A DNA stretch of 27,413 nucleotides from a virus (taxonomy: Duplodnaviria; Heunggongvirae; Uroviricota; Caudoviricetes). The notes beneath the pieces were generated by a model. The model worked only from the letters and a program-made list of their open reading frames with translations, searched no databases and was not told the origin of the DNA. The stretch is from the IMG/VR virus record IMGVR_UViG_2634166457_000011; one strand, 5' to 3'. A program made the translations under genes and the position numbers. Positions 6,188 to 24,999 of this stretch are shown one piece after another. The stretch's first letter is position 1. Every line of letters starts with the position of its first letter.

Positions 6188-6762
6188 AACCTCAGTTGTT
6201 GTTTCAGTGCATACCCCAGCTGTTTCGGCATTTCCGCAGCAATGATGTGGTCGCGGGCATCTTCAAATGCCTGTGTCAGCGGTCCGGACAGCGGGATTTT
6301 CACTACCTCCACAGGAAGACGATTTTTTCTTGGCCTGCCCTGATGGTCATGCCCTGTTGCAAAACGCGCTTCAGGAAGACGCCTCAGAACATGCCAGCGG
6401 CCATTCGCCAGTTGCTGAACAAATGCCCCCCGGAAAAAGTATTTTCCCACTCTCAGTCCTTCACCAGCACGCCGCCGTGTTGTGTTCAGTTTGATGGCGG
6501 GCAGATTGCCCCGGTTAACGCGGATCCTGGCCGTCATTTTTCCTGACGGACTGGCTTTAAACACCCGGACACGCTGACGTACCAGTTTCAGGGGGATCCC
6601 TTTCACCTGGTTATCTCCCGCAACGGTATTCCCGGCAACCTGCCGGGTGGCAACCGAGACCGCTTTCTGTGCCACACGGTTTATCGCCCATGCGCTGGCC
6701 TGTGGCACCATACGGGTATCAAGGCTGTTCAGATTGCGGATGGCATTCTCAAGCCCCTTCAT
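6172..6762 (-). CDS. Z: Tail completion protein Z
   Basis: Motifs RIRVNRGNLP, GAFVQQLANGRWHV, VVKIPL, QLGYALKQQLR match lambda gpZ as I recall it. Confidence 0.8.
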   Translation of the reverse strand: MKGLENAIRNLNSLDTRMVPQASAWAINRVAQKAVSVATRQVAGNTVAGDNQVKGIPLKLVRQRVRVFKASPSGKMTARIRVNRGNLPAIKLNTTRRRAGEGLRVGKYFFRGAFVQQLANGRWHVLRRLPEARFATGHDHQGRPRKNRLPVEVVKIPLSGPLTQAFEDARDHIIAAEMPKQLGYALKQQLRLWLTR

Positions 6763-7451: not shown

Positions 7452-9410
7452 TTACGCCGTACATTTCACCAGACCGCGGTGATCAACTGGCGCGACACCG
7501 GCGTCAATACGCACTTTCGTTGTCACGCCATCCACACTGAAGCCCTCCATCTGATCAATATATGGCGTATCCACACCGTTGAGATAAGCCACTTCAATCG
7601 TATCGGAGCCTTTTGACGCAGCCAGGTAGAAGGTGGTCTGGCTGTTATCATCAAGACGAGGCTCTGCAATAACGGTCGCAAAATCTTTCACCGGGTTAAT
7701 AATACCGGCGTTAATGTCAGCCCCCTTGACACTTGAGGAGCGAATGACCTGGTTAGCAACAGACTCCATCGCCGTCGGTACCAGTACGAACGCAGGACGA
7801 ATATTCAGATGACGCTCCCCCTCTTTCTGAACGCGCATCAACTGGCGGGCTTTATCCAGCGATGCCACGTCCATTGCAGCGCTCTCCAGTACGTTTGCAT
7901 GTTTCGCTTTATCGAACAGACTTACATTATCTGTGGAGATTTTCGGGTTAGACGTCAGAATGGCATAAACCAGATCGGCAATAGTGGATTTCGCCGCACG
8001 GCCCAGTTTCATCGGGACATCGGTCAGCATATTCAGATCATCATTGATAATGGCCTGACGGGTGATACTGAACAGCTCGCCATAGGTCGCCAGTGCAATA
8101 GTGGCCTGTTTATCTCCGGTGGTGACGTATTTATATTCCGCCCCTTCACGCACCTGACGCAGAGCACTGAAGCCCCCCATACCCACACGATGGGCAATTT
8201 TAAAATCAGACAACTGACCTTTCCGCGTCCATTGTTCATAGGTTTCAGGAGCATCTTCCCAGCCCTGCAGAATGGCTTTGTTCGCAACATCCAGCAGAAT
8301 ATTACCGAAGTCAGACGTACTGTGGGTGAACGCCGCACCGACCATCTGCATCGGGTTATAACCGGAAACCCCAATACCCCGTTCAGTCAGTGACATACGG
8401 GCATATTCACGCAGGGTCATCCCGTTGTAGACATTATCACGTTCGGTTTTTTCAAATCCGGCACGCGCCATCAGCGCCTGGCGGATCCCGTCCCCCACAA
8501 AATTACCGTTACCAGCATAAATATGAGCCGGTGTATTTTTATTGGATGGCGTGGACTCGCGCCCCATCTCGTTCAACAGCTTTTCGCGGGCCTGCTCCAG
8601 CGAACACTCAGGATCGGCAAGACACTGAGCCTGCAGCGTCTGATAACGCCCGCCAAACATGGCAAACAGATCATTAATACCGTTTACACGCGCTTTTTGC
8701 TCTGCCAGTACCTGCGCACGGATACTGTTTTCATCCACCACGGGTGCTGCTGCCTGCACTGGCGTCCGGGAGGCTGCAGGTTCATCATCCTGTACGCGTG
8801 GAGCACTGTTGCGTGGCGGAGTAATCATGTTTCGAATGGATTCCGGCATCTTTTTAAATTCCTCTGTACGTTTTGACTGAATACATGCCATTGCCTTAAC
8901 GGCTGGCGTCACCTGATCAGCAAATCCATGTGCCAGACATTCGGCACCGGACATCCAGGTCTCATCCGCCAGCATGGCAGCAATTTCATCGGTGGTTTTC
9001 CCGGTTTTCTGTGCATAAGCGGGTAACAGAACCGCCTCAACCTTATCGAGCAGGTCGGCATAGGTGCGCATGTCCTCCGCATCACCGCCCGTAAAGCCAA
9101 ATGGTTTATGAATCATCATGAAGGTGTTTTCCGGCATAATGACCGGGTTTCCCACCATCGCAATGACCGACGCCATTGACGCCGCCACACCGTCGACATA
9201 AACGGTAATGGACGCACCATGTGTTTTCAGCGCATTAAAAATGGCGATGCCTTCAAAGACATCGCCACCCGGTGAATTGATATGGAGATTAATGTGGGTG
9301 ATATCGCCCAGTGCATTCAGATCACTGATAAACTGCTTCGCTGTAACACCCCAGAAACCAATCTCGTCATAAATATAAATATCCGCGTCACTCTGGTGAC
9401 CAGCCTGCAT
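7452..9410 (-). CDS. Prohead protease (ClpP/S14-like) fused in-frame to the major capsid protein
   Basis: N-terminal region IYIYDEIGFWGVT...HINSPGGDVFEGIAIFNAL...VDGVAASMASVIAMVG is ClpP-like; about 430 C-terminal residues are capsid-like; one uninterrupted ORF. Start taken at ATG 9410, just after the portal stop; the track ORF extends to 9671 and overlaps portal. Confidence 0.8.
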   Translation of the reverse strand: MQAGHQSDADIYIYDEIGFWGVTAKQFISDLNALGDITHINLHINSPGGDVFEGIAIFNALKTHGASITVYVDGVAASMASVIAMVGNPVIMPENTFMMIHKPFGFTGGDAEDMRTYADLLDKVEAVLLPAYAQKTGKTTDEIAAMLADETWMSGAECLAHGFADQVTPAVKAMACIQSKRTEEFKKMPESIRNMITPPRNSAPRVQDDEPAASRTPVQAAAPVVDENSIRAQVLAEQKARVNGINDLFAMFGGRYQTLQAQCLADPECSLEQAREKLLNEMGRESTPSNKNTPAHIYAGNGNFVGDGIRQALMARAGFEKTERDNVYNGMTLREYARMSLTERGIGVSGYNPMQMVGAAFTHSTSDFGNILLDVANKAILQGWEDAPETYEQWTRKGQLSDFKIAHRVGMGGFSALRQVREGAEYKYVTTGDKQATIALATYGELFSITRQAIINDDLNMLTDVPMKLGRAAKSTIADLVYAILTSNPKISTDNVSLFDKAKHANVLESAAMDVASLDKARQLMRVQKEGERHLNIRPAFVLVPTAMESVANQVIRSSSVKGADINAGIINPVKDFATVIAEPRLDDNSQTTFYLAASKGSDTIEVAYLNGVDTPYIDQMEGFSVDGVTTKVRIDAGVAPVDHRGLVKCTA

Positions 9411-9423
9411 CCTGAACCAGGAA

Positions 9424-10932
9424 TTATTCTTCGGACTGGTCGTCGGTGTGCTGCGGCTCCTGTCGTTTCGTTGCGGCACTGCTGCCTCCTTTATCACTGG
9501 CCGGATCGGTATCAAATACCAGATCCAGCTTGCGGTTTTCATCAATTTCTGCCTTGCGCCGACATTTGACATCATCCGGATTACGACCACCTGCACGTAC
9601 CCAGTCTGATTCTGTCGCCGCTCCACCACGAATCTGAATTTTCCAGGCCTCAGCCTCCTTAACAGGGTCAATCCACGGCATCACCGGTCCGGAATACACC
9701 GCGGTATACAGTGAAGAACGGTCAAGATCGCGGGGTAGCCTGATAACACCGGATGCCACAGCCTGTTTCAGCCAGGCACGATACATCGGGCGGGTGACGG
9801 CACCAATAAACCAGTCCTGCAGGATCAGGTAGCCATCAGTGGATTCAACCAGCTCCTGACGCTGGGCGCTGTAAGTGCCGTTATAGTTGCGCGCTGTACT
9901 GGAAAAACTCAGACGACTGCCCGCCGCCACGGCACGCAACTGACCATTACGAAAAGTTTCAAGGTTAGGATTGGGGCGATCCGACTTCACCATTCCGATT
10001 TCTTCGCCGGGTTTCAGATCGTCGTAAATAATGCCTGGCTGAATGGTAAGCTCGCGTTCATTCTCCTTGCTGTCATTACCATCCGTTTCATAGCTCTGTC
10101 CGTCGCCTTTGCGGATGTACATCCCCAGAGCAGCAGCGATCCTTGCTGCAGTCAGCTCAGAATCTTCATATTCTTTCAGGGCACTGAGGCGGATCAGCAC
10201 ACCGGACAATAAAGACGTCCCGCGCATCTGGTGCAGACGGCGAACAAATTTAAGATGCAGCATTCGCTCTGCATCCACTTCTTTGGTTTCCATCTGCCGT
10301 CCGGATACAGGACGACTTTTATACACCAGATATTTTTCGGGACGCCCCCAGTCATCAACAAACACGCCCTGATTCAGCCTGTTGCTCTCATCACTGGTCA
10401 TGGGAATAAAGTCTGGCTCGAGTGCCTCCAGCCAGAAATGAACACCGGCAGAAGGCGTCAGGCTGTTTATGCGCCCGGAAACCATCTGGGCAAACACCTC
10501 ACCATCGCGCAGCCAGGTACGCAGCATCAGACGTTCCAGCATCGGACGGGTAAACTGCCCGGTAACTTCCGGACTGACAGACCATTCACTCCATCGGGTG
10601 CGTATCTCCGCTGCCAGATCACGGGCAATGGCCCCATTGCGTAATACCGGATGTGGCTCGACAATAATCCCGTTTTTCCCCACCACCCGTTCTTCCAGCT
10701 TGTCAAATACACCAATGACCAGATCGTGGTTGTTATCAAGGTAACGGGCCTGCTCACGTAACGACACGGCCCCGTAGAGGCTTAACTGGTCGGCAGTTCG
10801 GTTTTCCCGCCGGGCTTTGTGTGTCCGCGTCGTTTTTACGGCCTCATAAGCCTGGATCACCGCCCGGGAACGCAGCCTTGCCGCTTTCCATCCTGGTGAA
10901 AAAACGCCAATCACATCATCAAGAATTGCCAT
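9424..10932 (-). CDS. Portal protein (lambda gpB family)
   Basis: About 500 aa between gpW and the protease/capsid gene; start ATG 10932 overlaps the W stop (TGATG). Confidence 0.85.
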   Translation of the reverse strand: MAILDDVIGVFSPGWKAARLRSRAVIQAYEAVKTTRTHKARRENRTADQLSLYGAVSLREQARYLDNNHDLVIGVFDKLEERVVGKNGIIVEPHPVLRNGAIARDLAAEIRTRWSEWSVSPEVTGQFTRPMLERLMLRTWLRDGEVFAQMVSGRINSLTPSAGVHFWLEALEPDFIPMTSDESNRLNQGVFVDDWGRPEKYLVYKSRPVSGRQMETKEVDAERMLHLKFVRRLHQMRGTSLLSGVLIRLSALKEYEDSELTAARIAAALGMYIRKGDGQSYETDGNDSKENERELTIQPGIIYDDLKPGEEIGMVKSDRPNPNLETFRNGQLRAVAAGSRLSFSSTARNYNGTYSAQRQELVESTDGYLILQDWFIGAVTRPMYRAWLKQAVASGVIRLPRDLDRSSLYTAVYSGPVMPWIDPVKEAEAWKIQIRGGAATESDWVRAGGRNPDDVKCRRKAEIDENRKLDLVFDTDPASDKGGSSAATKRQEPQHTDDQSEE

Positions 10933-13248: not shown

Positions 13249-13776
13249 CTAGAGACTCTCTCCTTCCTCATCAGGAATTAATTCAGCAGCACAAGCCTCG
13301 TAGGATTTTTCCTGAAGAGTGTATCGCAGGTCATCAATGGCCTGCTGTACAACGCCGACGGCCTGAGGAGTCAGAGCGCAATCGCGTTCAAGAACATCCG
13401 GAATTGTCTCCAGAACCTGGACGACAGCCTTTCTCATGGACGAATAGACGATGACTACTTCATCAACTGGGATGAGTTTTCGCTGCTCCTTTTCCAGCTT
13501 GATCCTTTCATTTTCAGACTGGTACCAGTCCTTTCTCTCTTTCGGCTCCATACGGGATGGATCATGAACAGAGTCTGCTGCCTCATGCTTCACACTAAAC
13601 AGGGCGGGCCCGACATGCTGCAGGGCGTAAACGGGGTTCCCCCTGACAGTCGCAGCCACAGGAGTGTTGGCCGCGAGGAGCCGTTTTTTTACTGTGTCCC
13701 GGTGAAGCCCAAAGGCCTCGGCGATTTTAAAAACACTCCAGTAATAAGCATCACCGATCCCGCTCACATTTGACAT
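13249..13776 (-). CDS. Terminase small subunit (Nu1-like, N-terminal HTH)
   Basis: Translation MSNVSGIGDAYYWSVFKIAEAFGLHRDTVKK...; GGAG 6 nt upstream of the ATG at 13776 (the track ORF starts 4 codons earlier). Confidence 0.8.
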   Translation of the reverse strand: MSNVSGIGDAYYWSVFKIAEAFGLHRDTVKKRLLAANTPVAATVRGNPVYALQHVGPALFSVKHEAADSVHDPSRMEPKERKDWYQSENERIKLEKEQRKLIPVDEVVIVYSSMRKAVVQVLETIPDVLERDCALTPQAVGVVQQAIDDLRYTLQEKSYEACAAELIPDEEGESL

Positions 13777-13939
13777 AAGCAACTCCATCTGGCAGGTGAA
13801 AATCAGGTTTATTTATATATTTCAATTAATTGCAAACTGGTCTAATGACAGGAAGAAAAAAATATTGTACAGGTGAAAAGAGAAATAACTTTTAATTATC
13901 AATAAATTACCAAACATGCTGCCGCCGCCATGGAAATGC

Positions 13940-14010
13940 AAAAACTAGCCTTTTTCCGCGACGCTCCCGCCCCGTGGCAGGGGCCCCCACCGGGAGGACC
14001 CGACAGCCTG
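13940..14010 (-). other. Candidate cos site (cosQ-cosN-cosB) with cosN about 13961..13972
   Basis: Minus strand reads GTCGGGTCCTCCCGGTG...CCACG GGGCGGGAGCGT CGCGGAAAAAGG, which resembles my recollection of the lambda cos junction (CGGGTCCTTTCCGGTG...TTACG GGGCGGCGACCT CGCGGGTTTTCGC). It lies about 180 bp upstream of Nu1, as in lambda. Confidence 0.55.
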
Positions 14011-14152
14011 ACAGCCGTGACGAGCATCTGATACAGCGCTTTACATAATGGCATAGGAATAATTCAGAAGGACATCACAGCATGCCCACACAAATTAGTG
14101 TGAGTGTCCTGTTTCTTCCTACGCACAGGACTGACGAGCATGAGGGGAAAAT

Positions 14153-14320
14153 ATGCGAACCATAAATGCCTCATCTTCAGCAATGCAGCCGGCATCCGAA
14201 CAGGACGATATTGTAAATTCACCTAATTACGAGGACATTGCAGTAGTTGAATTGCAGCTCTGTATTAGCATGACAGTGACAGAATGCGACATTGACTCTG
14301 TCACAGGTGAAATAGTTTGA
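14153..14320 (+). CDS. Hypothetical small acidic protein (55 aa)
   Basis: ATG at 14153 preceded by GAGGGG; ORF not in the track because it is under 60 aa. Confidence 0.2.
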   Translation: MRTINASSSAMQPASEQDDIVNSPNYEDIAVVELQLCISMTVTECDIDSVTGEIV

Positions 14321-14340
14321 ATGATTAGCAGTTATGGTGC

Positions 14341-14547
14341 TCAGTCAACCACCAGGGAATAATCCTTCGAATTCTTATCGTGCTTCACCAACGCTGCCTC
14401 AATTGCCCTGAATGCTTCCAGAGACACCTGATGTTCTATACATGCAATTACAACATCCGGGTAACTCATAGAAATGGTGCTATTAAGCATATTTTTTACA
14501 CGAATCAGATCCAACGAGAGTTCATCAGCAGATTGTTCTTTATTCAT
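14341..14547 (-). CDS. Hypothetical moron protein (68 aa)
   Basis: ORF with GGAG 8-9 nt upstream of the ATG; low-GC island. Confidence 0.4.
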
Positions 14548-18604: not shown

Positions 18605-18775
18605 ATGTCAGAACGTAAAGACTCAAAATCACGCCGTAATTATCTCGTTAAATGTTCCTGCCCAAACTGCACCCAAGAGTCAGAACACAGTTTTTCAAGA
18701 GTACAAAAAGGTGCCCTTTTGATCTGCCCTCATTGCAACAAAGTATTCCAGACAAATCTTAAAGCTGTAGCCTGA
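18605..18775 (+). CDS. Small zinc-ribbon protein (C-x2-C ... C-x2-C), 56 aa
   Basis: MSERKDSKSRRNYLVKCSCPNCTQ...LICPHCNKVFQ; AGGAAAA SD before the ATG at 18605. Confidence 0.4.
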   Translation: MSERKDSKSRRNYLVKCSCPNCTQESEHSFSRVQKGALLICPHCNKVFQTNLKAVA

Positions 18776-18832
18776 TTGATTTTATTAGTAACAAGTATTT
18801 TTTATATTTTAATAATATATTTAAAGCAGATA

Positions 18833-18857
18833 ATAAAAAACCCGCCTGAGCGGGTTT
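18833..18857 (-). terminator. Intrinsic terminator downstream of cspB (weaker on the plus strand)
   Basis: CCCGC-CTGA-GCGGG hairpin; the minus strand follows it with TTTTTTATTA. Confidence 0.5.
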
Positions 18858-19138
18858 GAGATTGTGGTGCTTTTTGTGGGAGTCATCCACTTACGCACTT
18901 TGTTTTGCGATGCCAGCAGTTAGCTTCTGCTGTGAAACTATTCATGCAGCAAACCTGCACTTCACCACAATGGTTAGCATACTTTTCCTGATTAAGATTT
19001 TGCCAAATATGCTGGCCATTGTTTCATGTATTGGACCTCCTTACTTTTTATTAAAGAGATCCAATATTCACTACTCTGTCCGTATCTCTACTCAGGCATC
19101 AGCCTTCTTCGTTATCGTATACAGACGAGCGATGAATT

Positions 19139-19354
19139 TTAATCAGTAATGATGACATTTGCTGCTGCAGGACCTTTAGCACCACTCTCTATAGAGAAGG
19201 TAACCTTTTGACCTTCAAATAAGGTTCGATAATTATCATTCTGAATCGCAGAAAAATGCACAAACACATCTTTACTACCATCAACAGGAGAAATAAAGCC
19301 GAAACCTTTATCAGCGTTAAACCATTTTACTAAACCAGTCATTTTATTTGACAT
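19139..19354 (-). CDS. cspB: Cold shock protein, CspA family (CspB-like)
   Basis: 71 aa, [38 protein letters not shown]... Confidence 0.85.
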
Positions 19355-19894
19355 TCTACATTCCTTAACTTGAGCCTTTCGGCATAAATGGTTTGCATAA
19401 CAGAAACGACTTCGTACTTAATTGGAGAGACTCAAAGAAGGAATAAGTGAATAACACCTGAAATGAGAACTGCTTTAGTAAACTACTTCGTATATCGTCT
19501 GTTCTTCAAACCGACGCAGTCATTAACTCATAGTTGAACATATGAAGCAATGTTTATTTTAGACATCCAGCCACCTTCTACCCTATCAAAAAAGTAGTTT
19601 TCTCCAGGAACGTGTGTATGGTGCACCAGGTTATCAGTATTAAGGAGTTTTTCTGTCCCCTAAAATGACAGGAATTGTCAAAAACTTTGACTGCAAAAGC
19701 AGCAAAGGTCTTATATTCCCATCCGATGGCGTATCGATGCCCAGCTTCACGTTTCAGCTCTCAATCTTCGAGATGCAGAAGAAATTACCACAGGATTACG
19801 CGTGGAATTTTGCCGGATAAATGGTTCGCGTGGACCTTCAACTGCCAATGTTTATCCCGGGATGAGATTCAATATCTCTATTGCCCCATTTAAA

Positions 19895-19925
19895 GCACAA
19901 AAACCCGCTTATAAGCGGGTTTTCT
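19895..19925 (-). terminator. tR'-like intrinsic terminator downstream of the late promoter
   Basis: Minus strand AAAACCCGCTTATAAGCGGGTTTTTGT; about 50 nt downstream of the putative -10. Confidence 0.55.
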
Positions 19926-19969
19926 ACTTTTTTCTAAACGTCGGATACACAAAGCCCATCGTTGAGAAA

Positions 19970-19998
19970 ATCTTATCCATGTTTTTTGAAAAATGCAA
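19970..19998 (-). promoter_or_regulatory. Putative Q-dependent late promoter (pR'-like)
   Basis: Minus strand TTGCAT (19998..19993), 17-nt spacer, TAAGAT (19975..19970), immediately downstream of the Q stop. Confidence 0.45.
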
Positions 19999-20029
19999 AC
20001 ATCATGTCGCCATCTTCAGCAAAAATCAT

Positions 20030-20782
20030 TTATCTCGTCACCTTCCTCAATTGCGCTTCCGCGTATGCTTCTTCCTGCCAGCACTTTGTTACCAGTTTAT
20101 CAATGACGTCCGCATACCCCTTATACCACTGATAATCGGTCAGGTCTGGTACCAGCTTCTGGACATGACGTCGTGCCAGCGTGGTCGGTAAACGACTAAA
20201 TCGGTTTCCATTACAACGCCCACAAATCTTATATACCGGTACGCCATGAAACCGGGTTCTTTTTTCATCCAGAACAATCCCTTTACCCTTACACCCTCTG
20301 CACGCTGTGCTGACTTCGCCCTTACCATGGCAATGCTGACATAGTTCCTTCACCCATTCTTCCTTGATTACAGATTCCCCGCGTCTGTAGTGTTTCACCA
20401 CTTCGCGCAATACATTATAAAATCCCGTACCTGAACAATGCTCACAGCGAGCCTTACTTGCCGCAGACCTGGAGTAATCAGCAAAGGCAAAATTCACGAG
20501 GTAAGGAATAATCTGTAACCGGATTTCTTCACTCAATTTGTTCAATGTCGGGTTATCCAGTGCCATCGCGTAATTTAGCAGGCCTTCAATCGCAAACTGA
20601 GGGTCCTGAACACCAACTTTTGCCAGAAATAAGGCCAACCCAAGTGGTGCTTTCGACTGCACCATCCCCTGCGCTGCCATTACATCCGTAATTGTTAAAC
20701 AACCGGTGCCTGTCGCTGGAGCGTCATCGCTCAATTTTGGAGATTTTGGGGAGTAATATTTTGGTAAGGCTTCAAGGTTCAT
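20030..20782 (-). CDS. quuQ: Late gene antiterminator Q (Cys-rich zinc-binding type)
   Basis: 250 aa; CEHCSGTGF...CQHCHGKGE...CRGCKGKG...CGRCNGNRF; located upstream of the late promoter/terminator and lysis genes. Confidence 0.8.
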
Positions 20783-24492: not shown

Positions 24493-24999
24493 ATGAACGC
24501 TATTCACTGGCCAGAAGGCTTTGTTCCGGGATTTACTGATAACTTTGTTTCTAATGAAATGATCATATCCGGCCTGAACGTCAATGATGTTTGGCCACTC
24601 CTTAGTCAGCCATTGCTATGGCCGGAATACTATAAAAATTCAGCAGATGTGCGCTTTTATAACAATAAAGGTCCGGATCTGGAAAATGGAGTGCGCTTTT
24701 ACTTCAGCACATTTGGATTTCCGGTTGAAGCTCAGGTCGTGGAATTTATTCCACCTGTTGAAGGTAAACCTGCTCGTTTGGCATGGCACGGATGGTCAGG
24801 TGAAAAAGATACTGTTCAACGCCTCGATGTTCATCATGCGTGGCTACTGGAGGAACTCTCGGGTAACAGACTCCGTATCCTGACGCAGGAAACGCAGAAC
24901 GGAGTTCCGGCAAAAAAACTGGCAAATACTCGTCCGAACCCAATGCTCAATGGTCACCAGGAGTGGCTTGACGGCCTGATTCTGGCTGCAAAGAAATAA
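24493..24999 (+). CDS. SRPBCC-superfamily (polyketide cyclase/START-like) protein
   Basis: 168 aa from the ATG at 24493 (GGAG SD); sequence resembles small ligand-binding SRPBCC proteins; recalled, not searched. Confidence 0.6.
   Translation: MNAIHWPEGFVPGFTDNFVSNEMIISGLNVNDVWPLLSQPLLWPEYYKNSADVRFYNNKGPDLENGVRFYFSTFGFPVEAQVVEFIPPVEGKPARLAWHGWSGEKDTVQRLDVHHAWLLEELSGNRLRILTQETQNGVPAKKLANTRPNPMLNGHQEWLDGLILAAKK

Follow-up and report, generated by a model that had tools for sequence, protein, structure and literature searches.

The segment lying immediately upstream of the small terminase gene in the 27,413-nucleotide viral record IMGVR_UViG_2634166457_000011 (hereafter "the window", meaning this whole stretch of DNA) is very probably the cos site of a lambdoid prophage whose head module is of the Gifsy-2 type and whose terminase is of the gpA type. 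The site follows the layout of the lambda cos and would derive its specificity from the small terminase subunit (TerS) and cosB. It is a regular member of the lambda-like cos sites, and its position was already implicit in two GenBank records. What is new here, to a modest extent, is a comparative map of cosB for the TerS subfamily found in the window. The features on which the argument rests are collected in Table 1, where distances in bp are counted from the predicted nick in the phage orientation.

Table 1. Features of the cos region and terminase genes, with positions in the window.
Feature	Position	Strand	Remarks
cosQ-like heptamer GGGTCCT	13995..14001	-	bp -29..-23 from the nick; equal to the lambda heptamer at the aligned position
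cosN with flanks, CCACG-GGGCGGGAGCGT-CGCGG	13956..13977	-	two-fold symmetric at 12/22 positions (lambda 10/22)
Predicted 12-nt 5' cohesive end GGGCGGGAGCGT	13961..13972	-	left end 5'-GGGCGGGAGCGT
Right-end overhang 5'-ACGCTCCCGCCC	13961..13972	+	predicted; complement of GGGCGGGAGCGT
Conserved block CGCGGAAAAAGGCTAGTTTTTGCATTTCCATGG	13928..13960	-	bp 13-45, right of the nick; common to different TerS alleles
Lambda R3-equivalent position GGCAGCATGTTTGG	13910..13923	-	bp 50-63; degenerate version of the relatives' CAGCAGGTGA
IHF consensus site TATCAATAAATTA (consensus WATCAANNNNTTR)	13897..13909	+	bp 64-76; predicted
Motif copy A CAGGTGAAA (phage strand TTTCACCTG)	13870..13878	+	bp 95-103; candidate TerS site, lambda R2-like position
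Conserved block CCTGTCATTAGACCAG	13837..13852	-	bp 121-136; position of TGTCACCTCAAT in Providencia and Proteus relatives
Motif copy B CAGGTGAAA (phage strand TTTCACCTG)	13793..13801	+	bp 172-180; candidate TerS site, lambda R1-like position
Small terminase subunit TerS, 175 aa, DUF1441	13249..13776	-	ATG at 13776 is the likely start
Large terminase subunit TerL, gpA family, 699 aa	11141..13240	-	Pfam GpA_ATPase 5e-81, GpA_nuclease 5.7e-86

The cos core and its cohesive ends

Read along the minus strand, the region runs ...GGCTGTCAGGCTGTC GGGTCCT CCCGGTGGGGGCCCCTG CCACG GGGCGGGAGCGT CGCGG AAAAAGGCTAG..., with a CCCGGTG element placed between the heptamer and the CCACG-GGGCGGGAGCGT-CGCGG core. 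The heptamer, which in lambda is cosQ, starts 29 nt before the nick, versus 30 nt in lambda. An alignment to the lambda cos region, suggested as a check in the preliminary description of this DNA, was made against the joined ends of the lambda genome (NC_001416), and it returned GGGTCCT, CCGGTG, ACG/GGGCGG and T/CGCGG as common elements (the slash marking the nick). Among the features by which a lambda-like cos is recognised, a CG step beside both nicks, a partial two-fold symmetry and GGGTCCT about 30 bp upstream are found; together with a TerL of the gpA family, they support the lambda-like cos that had been proposed upstream of the small terminase gene. The predicted cohesive end GGGCGGGAGCGT, 196 bp upstream of the small terminase start, shows significant identity to the lambda 12-mer GGGCGGCGACCT, being equal to it at 8 of 12 positions: bases 1-6 are all the same and the differences fall at positions 7, 8, 9 and 11. 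The end is thus divergent from lambda, as had been stated, with a count of four differences in place of the five originally given.

Among 80 loci with the same TerS allele the cosQ-like heptamer is kept and its flanks vary, while relatives from other genera carry AGGTACTCC at the cosQ position. The flanks CCACG and CGCGG are retained in most relatives across six genera. The block at bp 13-45 is conserved across genera as well, and hardly changes in PhiR40_1 and mEp460_ev081, although the TerS of these two differs; it would correspond to a region contacted by TerL. Directly upstream of cosQ, a tandem repeat of GCTGTCAG-type units (GGCTGTCAGGCTGTCGGG) is found on the minus strand at 13999-14016, the number of units being variable, with one extra in phage Tritos and in about ten viral contigs.

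The similarity to lambda extends beyond the core. The two sites share GGGTCCT about 30 nt before the nick, the CG flanks, the 12-nt spacing, the GGGCGG left half, the partial two-fold symmetry, an IHF consensus placed between nick and repeats, repeated elements at comparable distances, a TerS start at about bp 191-197 and a gpA-family TerL. In lambda, cosB comprises R3 at 50-65, followed by I1, R2 at about 105-120 and R1 at about 151-166, with Nu1 starting at 191. What distinguishes the window from lambda, besides the 4/12 overhang bases and the one-nucleotide shift of cosQ, is a cosB with no sequence similarity to the lambda R sites and a TerS of the DUF1441 family rather than of the Pfam Nu1 family.

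Deposited phage genomes that begin and end at the predicted nick

When positions 13700-14150 were compared with phage records by megablast, the genomes of phages cdtI (NC_009514/AB285204) and Tritos (OV696610, deposited as a linear record) were each seen to start at query base 179, which corresponds to window position 13972. Both records start with GGGCGGGAGCGTCGCGG (in a longer reading, GGGCGGGAGCGTCGCGGAAAAAGG), so that their first 12 nt are GGGCGGGAGCGT, and both end with ...CCTGCCACG, i.e. with ...CCACG, at the base preceding the predicted cohesive end (in fuller form, ...GGGTCCTTCCGGTGGGGTGGCCTGCCACG in cdtI and ...GGGTCCTCCCGGTGGGGGCCCCTGCCACG in Tritos). The resemblance to cos is therefore not a matter of chance, because two records begin and end there. 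The predicted nick, which had been proposed to fix the ends of the virion genome, falls exactly, to the single base, where both of these deposited genomes start and finish, even if the two records could have been linearised by analogy with lambda instead of by experiment. In the literature searched, neither end-mapping data for this cos nor a paper naming phage Tritos was found. Identity of sequence with the deposited genome ends is what the comparison establishes; the chemical nature of the termini is deduced from it.

A third phage isolate, HannyBb (PP925841), carries an identical cos, internal to its record. All three phages encode a TerS 100% identical to that of the window and have the same 12-mer and the same motif copies A and B, with cosN-to-TerS DNA identical or nearly so to the window. 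Phage cdtI is unlike the window in having a different right-end module, in which the third motif copy described below is absent. No cos feature appears among the annotations in the stretches viewed of the cdtI, Tritos and HannyBb records, and none is listed for the region in the RefSeq annotation.

The terminase subunits

In the phage orientation, cos is followed by the DUF1441 gene and then by a TerL gene with both gpA domains. The large subunit is 24% identical to lambda gpA (E = 5e-22). The assigned TerS start, ATG at 13776, is preceded by GGAG at 13786..13783, while the longer open reading frame starting at 13788 is devoid of such a ribosome-binding site. The annotated start differs among records, with cdtI using the upstream ATG (179 aa) and both Tritos and the RefSeq entry of NRG 857C using ATGTCA (175 aa); only the 175-aa start has GGAG at an appropriate spacing, and in alignment it matches the MSN... 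start found in relatives from other genera.

The preliminary description had called this gene Nu1. TerS matches Pfam PF07278 (DUF1441) at 1.7e-44 and gives no match to Pfam Phage_Nu1. Against PHROG, it hits phrog_141 at 8e-65 and phrog_57, the family of Nu1, at 1e-9, both labelled as terminase small subunit; lambda Nu1, in turn, hits phrog_57 at 1e-76 and phrog_141 at 6e-8, and these cross-matches are reciprocal over most of the length. Direct comparison of TerS with Nu1 gave no link, either by BLASTP (E = 4.6) or by hhalign with a 3-sequence profile (probability 0.3%), and a sequence search of the PDB matched no solved structure to TerS. An AlphaFold model of TerS (pLDDT 83.5) displays an N-terminal winged helix-turn-helix with a beta-alpha-alpha-beta-beta-alpha order at residues 12-60. 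A single-sequence model (pLDDT 45) was unusable and was discarded. The best structural matches of the small domain in Foldseek are winged helix-turn-helix domains of the MerR type whose structures were determined on DNA (RacA, TnrA, BmrR, BldC, Xis and Par), with weak E-values of 0.07 or higher; no direct structural match of TerS to Nu1 was obtained by the same means. The DNA-binding domain of gpNu1 belongs to the MerR-like class. Its fold is a winged helix-turn-helix (PMC4669245). To judge from the model and the profiles, TerS would be remotely homologous to Nu1 and share its type of DNA-binding domain, standing outside the Pfam Nu1 family. The label Nu1 is accordingly a loose one: the protein is a DUF1441 (PF07278) member, and its kinship to Nu1 emerges by reciprocal profile matches only.

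In distant relatives from Pseudoalteromonas (loci L108 and L109) a cos-like CCACG...CGCGG is located farther away, about 290 bp upstream of the matched TerS, and the DUF1441 gene is separated from cos by a second small ORF resembling a helix-turn-helix protein (MSKKLALRHLN...). These loci may have another small-subunit arrangement, or an extra gene.

A repeated motif close to cos

The motif CAGGTGAAA, which had been reported to recur near cos at 13793, 13870 and 14303 and had been proposed as a terminase binding site similar to the R sites of cosB, occurs five times in the window versus 0.24 times expected, a number reached by none of 100 shuffles. Four copies are on the plus strand (13793, 13870, 14304 and 24797) and one is on the minus strand (6601). 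The first two positions, copies B and A, stand as described, and the third copy starts at 14304 instead of 14303. The copies at 6601-6609 (minus) and 24797-24805 (plus) are far from cos, probably within coding sequence. The copy at 14304 lies just downstream of a ybcW-like gene, in the module on that side; it occurs in only 17 of the 79 same-allele loci, is missing from the last 1.5 kb of cdtI, and was rejected as a part of cos.

Copy B, placed 16 nt before the TerS start codon, is present in 78/79 same-allele loci. Copy A is exact in 58/79 and substituted in the other 21 (CAGCTG in 11, TACCTG in 8, CGCCTG and CACCAG in 1 each). The 10-mer TTTTCACCTG common to the two copies is only modestly unusual, since a direct repeat at least as long was obtained in 201 of 5000 dinucleotide shuffles of cosB alone. 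A promoter or terminator reading of the motifs found no promoter-like or terminator-like site in the cos-to-TerS interval; the one promoter-like match in the scanned kilobase (14348..14321, minus strand) does not exceed what shuffled sequences yield. Footprinting among the 80 same-allele viral contigs was tried and abandoned, as it offered little contrast in a cosN-to-TerS interval that is nearly invariant.

Architecture of cosB in the relatives

Twelve cos regions from six genera, with TerS identities of 54-100%, were aligned. The informative relatives are those with 54-59% TerS identity, i.e. the Providencia phage PSTCR8lys and prophages of Providencia, Proteus, Xenorhabdus, Yersinia and Rahnella; the N-terminal domains of the relatives' TerS are close to that of the window. 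The distance between nick and TerS ATG is 195-196 bp in all twelve regions. The IHF consensus WATCAANNNNTTR is found at bp 64-76 in 10 of the 12, covering five genera and with variation at its N positions, and the copy in the window, TATCAATAAATTA, is the sole match to this consensus in the 27 kb.

TCACCT/AGGTGA cores are located in the relatives at about bp 56 (inverted), 99 (inverted), 124 (direct) and 173 (direct). In an unbiased k-mer count, this was the top recurring 6-mer of these cosB regions, with 32 copies in total and at least two in 11 of 12. In five diverged relatives, the 2-3 cores observed after exclusion of the ribosome-binding site were reached by at most 2 of 2000 shuffles. 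At bp 173, TCACCTG.C is kept in 10 of 11 relatives, including all ten with 54-59% TerS identity, within a diverged AT-rich context. Scandinavium, which among the other genera is the closest relative (its TerS is 87% identical), has TCGCCTG at this position and neither copy A nor copy B in exact form. At bp 56 the version of the window and of E. coli is degenerate (CAGCATGTTT), and at copy A (bp about 97-104) E. coli has CACCTG versus CAGGTG in the relatives, where the core at bp 99, AGGTGACA, is oriented the other way. Given the degenerate bp-56 site and the reversed copy A, any set of sites proposed for E. coli is a tentative one. The flip, compared with loci L098 and L104 and with the Providencia/Proteus loci, involves a near-palindrome, and the palindromic intermediate CAGCTG occurs in 11 of 80 E. 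coli-type loci. Under the tentative reading given below, the change from CAGGTG to CACCTG at bp about 99, with CAGCTG still segregating, would suggest that the site is read in an orientation-tolerant manner.

Five DUF1441 cosB regions associated with other TerS alleles (PhiR40_1, Gifsy-2, LLS, Hafnia yong2 and Kp4865-4) have no TCACCT/AGGTGA and carry TGTCGAA/TTCGACA and CATCAT repeats instead. An R-site-like role of copies A and B is supported, without being proved, because the repeat co-varies with the type of TerS, as expected of R sites. Part of the positional conservation would reflect inheritance rather than selection, given the shared ancestry of the relatives. The earlier proposal of R-site-like TerS sites is thus partly supported: copies A and B, which sit at the core positions of the relatives, are candidate sites, with copy A polymorphic, and the copy at 14304 is external to cos.

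No description of cosB for DUF1441 terminases was found in the literature searched. We put forward tentatively, and at somewhat less than an even chance, that the DUF1441 subfamily shared by E. coli, Scandinavium, Yersinia, Rahnella, Xenorhabdus, Providencia and Proteus has a cosB code of its own, made of TCACCT(G) cores at fixed distances and an invariant IHF site, and constitutes a new packaging-specificity group. If true, this would be an experimentally tractable group, having cohesive ends in common with a second group (mEp460 type).

Alternatively, cos is real and TerS would recognise other blocks, such as CTGTCAT..GACCAG at bp 121-136 or the stretch at bp 13-45, the CAGGTGAAA repeat being a by-product of AT-rich spacer and shared ancestry. 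This is an unlikely reading that nonetheless has several observations in its favour: the modest rarity of the A/B repeat in the window (201/5000 shuffles), the fact that copy A is among the most polymorphic spots of a nearly invariant interval, and the case of Scandinavium, which lacks exact copies and keeps CCTGTCATTAGACCAG. The latter block is also common to Yersinia and Rahnella, and might represent a further TerS site. The opposite indication comes from the diverged relatives, in which a motif defined in the window is strongly enriched (at most 2/2000 shuffles) and occupies fixed positions, and from its disappearance in the cosB regions of other TerS alleles. Between the candidate sites, a perfect 10-bp palindrome, CAATTAATTG, is found on the minus strand at 13823-13832 (bp 141-150), conserved in Scandinavium and partly in Yersinia.

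Variation of the cohesive end and packaging specificity

Among 80 viral contigs with a 99-100% identical TerS, 78 carry GGGCGGGAGCGT. One locus with a 100% identical TerS (IMGVR_UViG_2778261579_000006) has GGGCGGCAGCGG instead. The latter differs at bp 7 and 12 and shows more changes in the first 65 bp of cosB, and may be a recombinant or a decaying cos. Conversely, PhiR40_1 and mEp460_ev081 possess an identical 12-mer and cosQ, yet their TerS is 42% identical and their cosB is different. As the same 12-mer is found with a different TerS, and the same TerS with a different 12-mer, overhang and TerS type are therefore uncoupled. Relatives in species-representative genomes mostly keep the CCACG-12 nt-CGCGG arrangement with many different 12-mers, including GGGCGGCGCGCT, GGGCGGCGTGCT, GGGCGGCGCGCA, GGGCGACGCGCA, GGGCGGCGGACT, GGGCGGCGCACT, GGGAGTGGGACT and AGGCGGCGACCA; within the TerS subfamily of the window, exactly 12 nt separate the conserved flanks in 11 of 12 cos regions across genera.

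The 12-mer GGGCGGGAGCGT and its reverse complement were not found in the relevant literature searched; they may be listed by Vahanian et al. 2017, reportedly a survey of cosN variants. According to Feiss et al., lambda-like phages are defined by 12-base 5' extensions resembling those of lambda (PMC4669245). Natural differences at bp 7-12 are common, as in N15 (positions 9 and 12) and Gifsy-1 (positions 8, 9 and 11), and changes in this right half do not measurably affect cleavage. Conservation is seen in cosQ and in the CG flanks, and packaging specificity resides in cosB and TerS (PMC4669245). Variation of the overhang in the lineage of DUF1441-type terminases is already in print for mEp213 and LLS, the latter with an inferred 12-nt end GGGCGGCGCGCT (PMC12315714). 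The LLS record has a feature giving the same GGGCGGCGCGCT, and its TerS is of the DUF1441 type. The natural cosN variants of Gifsy-1, N15, phiD326, mEp213 and LLS follow the same pattern as the window, with left half and CG flanks kept and differences in bp 7-12; unlike them, GGGCGGGAGCGT is changed at bp 7 as well.

It had been suggested that the divergent 12-mer implies a packaging specificity distinct from that of lambda. The argument from the 12-mer is not supported, given that the same 12-mer occurs with a TerS of 42% identity and the same TerS with GGGCGGCAGCGG. It is the TerS/cosB pair that sets the specificity, not the 12-mer, whose right half drifts freely. A specificity different from that of lambda is nevertheless likely, as TerS shows no sequence relationship to Nu1, nor cosB to the lambda cosB.

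The mEp460/PhiR40_1 group is instructive in this respect. Cohesive end and cosQ are the same as in the window, the first 35 bp or so to the right of the nick are nearly so, and an IHF-like block is co-located. The differences are in TerS (42% identical) and in cosB, where a TGTCGAA...TTCGACA inverted repeat is found and TCACCT/AGGTGA is absent. On sequence grounds, the ends of this group equal those of the window and its cosB/TerS specificity would be another one.

A model for recognition and cleavage

According to the model that we propose, TerL would cut each strand once, at points staggered by 12 bp: the nick in the phage top strand would separate CCACG from GGGCGG, that in the bottom strand would lie at the symmetrical place, and the virion DNA would be left with 5' overhangs GGGCGGGAGCGT and ACGCTCCCGCCC. 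The GGGTCCT element, 29 nt upstream of the nick, would act as cosQ, i.e. as the termination signal, and cosB (bp 13-196), to the right of the nick, would position TerL. IHF would bend the DNA at bp 64-76, and the winged helix-turn-helix of TerS would bind TCACCT-type cores, namely copies A (bp 95-103) and B (bp 172-180), with CCTGTCAT at bp 121-128 as a possible additional core. The binding of IHF and of TerS to cosB is, in this scheme, predicted from sequence.

Prophage context and remaining alternatives

The cos region is located between a Qin/DLP12-like lysis/late region and a Gifsy-2-type head module. The head module (7452-9671, minus strand; also 18672-20699 in locus L112) encodes a ClpP-like prohead protease fused to the major capsid protein, as in Gifsy-2. 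The prophage joins this head to the Qin/DLP12-like late region, which carries cspI, cspB, cspF, gnsB and hokD, and to a P-loop ATPase of the Sll1717 family.

Knowledge of the cos position lets annotators linearise and orient a very common type of E. coli prophage (part or all of the region is in 2123 of 5426 complete genomes), and helps to predict which prophages or cos-hijacking satellites can be packaged by which terminase. The site is also a natural example of the rule known for lambda, 21 and N15, by which the overhang drifts and specificity lies in TerS and cosB: a single overhang accompanies two TerS/cosB sets, and more than one overhang is found with the same TerS. Current understanding is left unchanged, and is extended to the DUF1441 terminase lineage.

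It is improbable, if worth weighing, that this intact cos belongs to a defective prophage, so that no virion ends are fixed here or that packaging needs a helper phage with the same TerS. The late region does resemble that of cryptic prophages of the Qin/DLP12 type (ydfT, essD, rrrQ, cspI, gnsB), and many lambdoid prophages are cryptic, with the cos region or part of it occurring in as many complete E. coli genomes as indicated above. Against this stand the cos-to-TerS DNA of the window, which the phage isolates Tritos and HannyBb carry without any change, the intact cos and packaging genes, which match those of phage isolates in full, and the TerS, TerL, portal, capsid and tail ORFs, which are full-length both in the window and in the identical region of NRG 857C.

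Far less probable is a role of copy B as RNA, in which TCACCU, similar to an anti-Shine-Dalgarno sequence, would pair with the ribosome-binding site of TerS and throttle its translation. In the minimum-energy folds of the Providencia, Proteus and Yersinia relatives, CACCU does pair with an AGGUG in the ribosome-binding site, but these stems are 5 bp long and unremarkable (z from -1.75 to +0.55). The ribosome-binding site of the window is GGAG and forms no such stem (-3.6 kcal/mol, z = +1.15), so that a hairpin sequestering it was rejected for the window; moreover, such a role does not account for the cores at bp 56, 99 and 124.

Finally, that the true termini depart from the lambda-like prediction, for instance in overhang length, as terminases of this lineage might cut differently, finds some ground in the 24% identity of TerL to gpA and in the 14-nt spacing of Gifsy-2, which belongs to the same TerS family, and is very unlikely in view of the 12-nt spacing kept in all but one of the subfamily cos regions and of two independent records cut at the 12-nt positions.

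Two further observations concern the phages used for comparison. In Gifsy-2 (NC_010393, about 730-760), the 14 nt between CCACG and CGCGG are GGTGGCTTCGGGCT, and a cosQ-like element AGGTACTCC is present; overhang length or nick positions may differ in this phage. In the last 300 bp or so of the mEp460_ev081 record (LR597641), some 115 bp of cosB (GGCTAGTTTTTGAAATTTCATCC...GATTGTTTTTTGT) occur twice as a direct repeat just before the record end; the repeat could have arisen during assembly across the cos junction, or could be genuine in this evolved phage.
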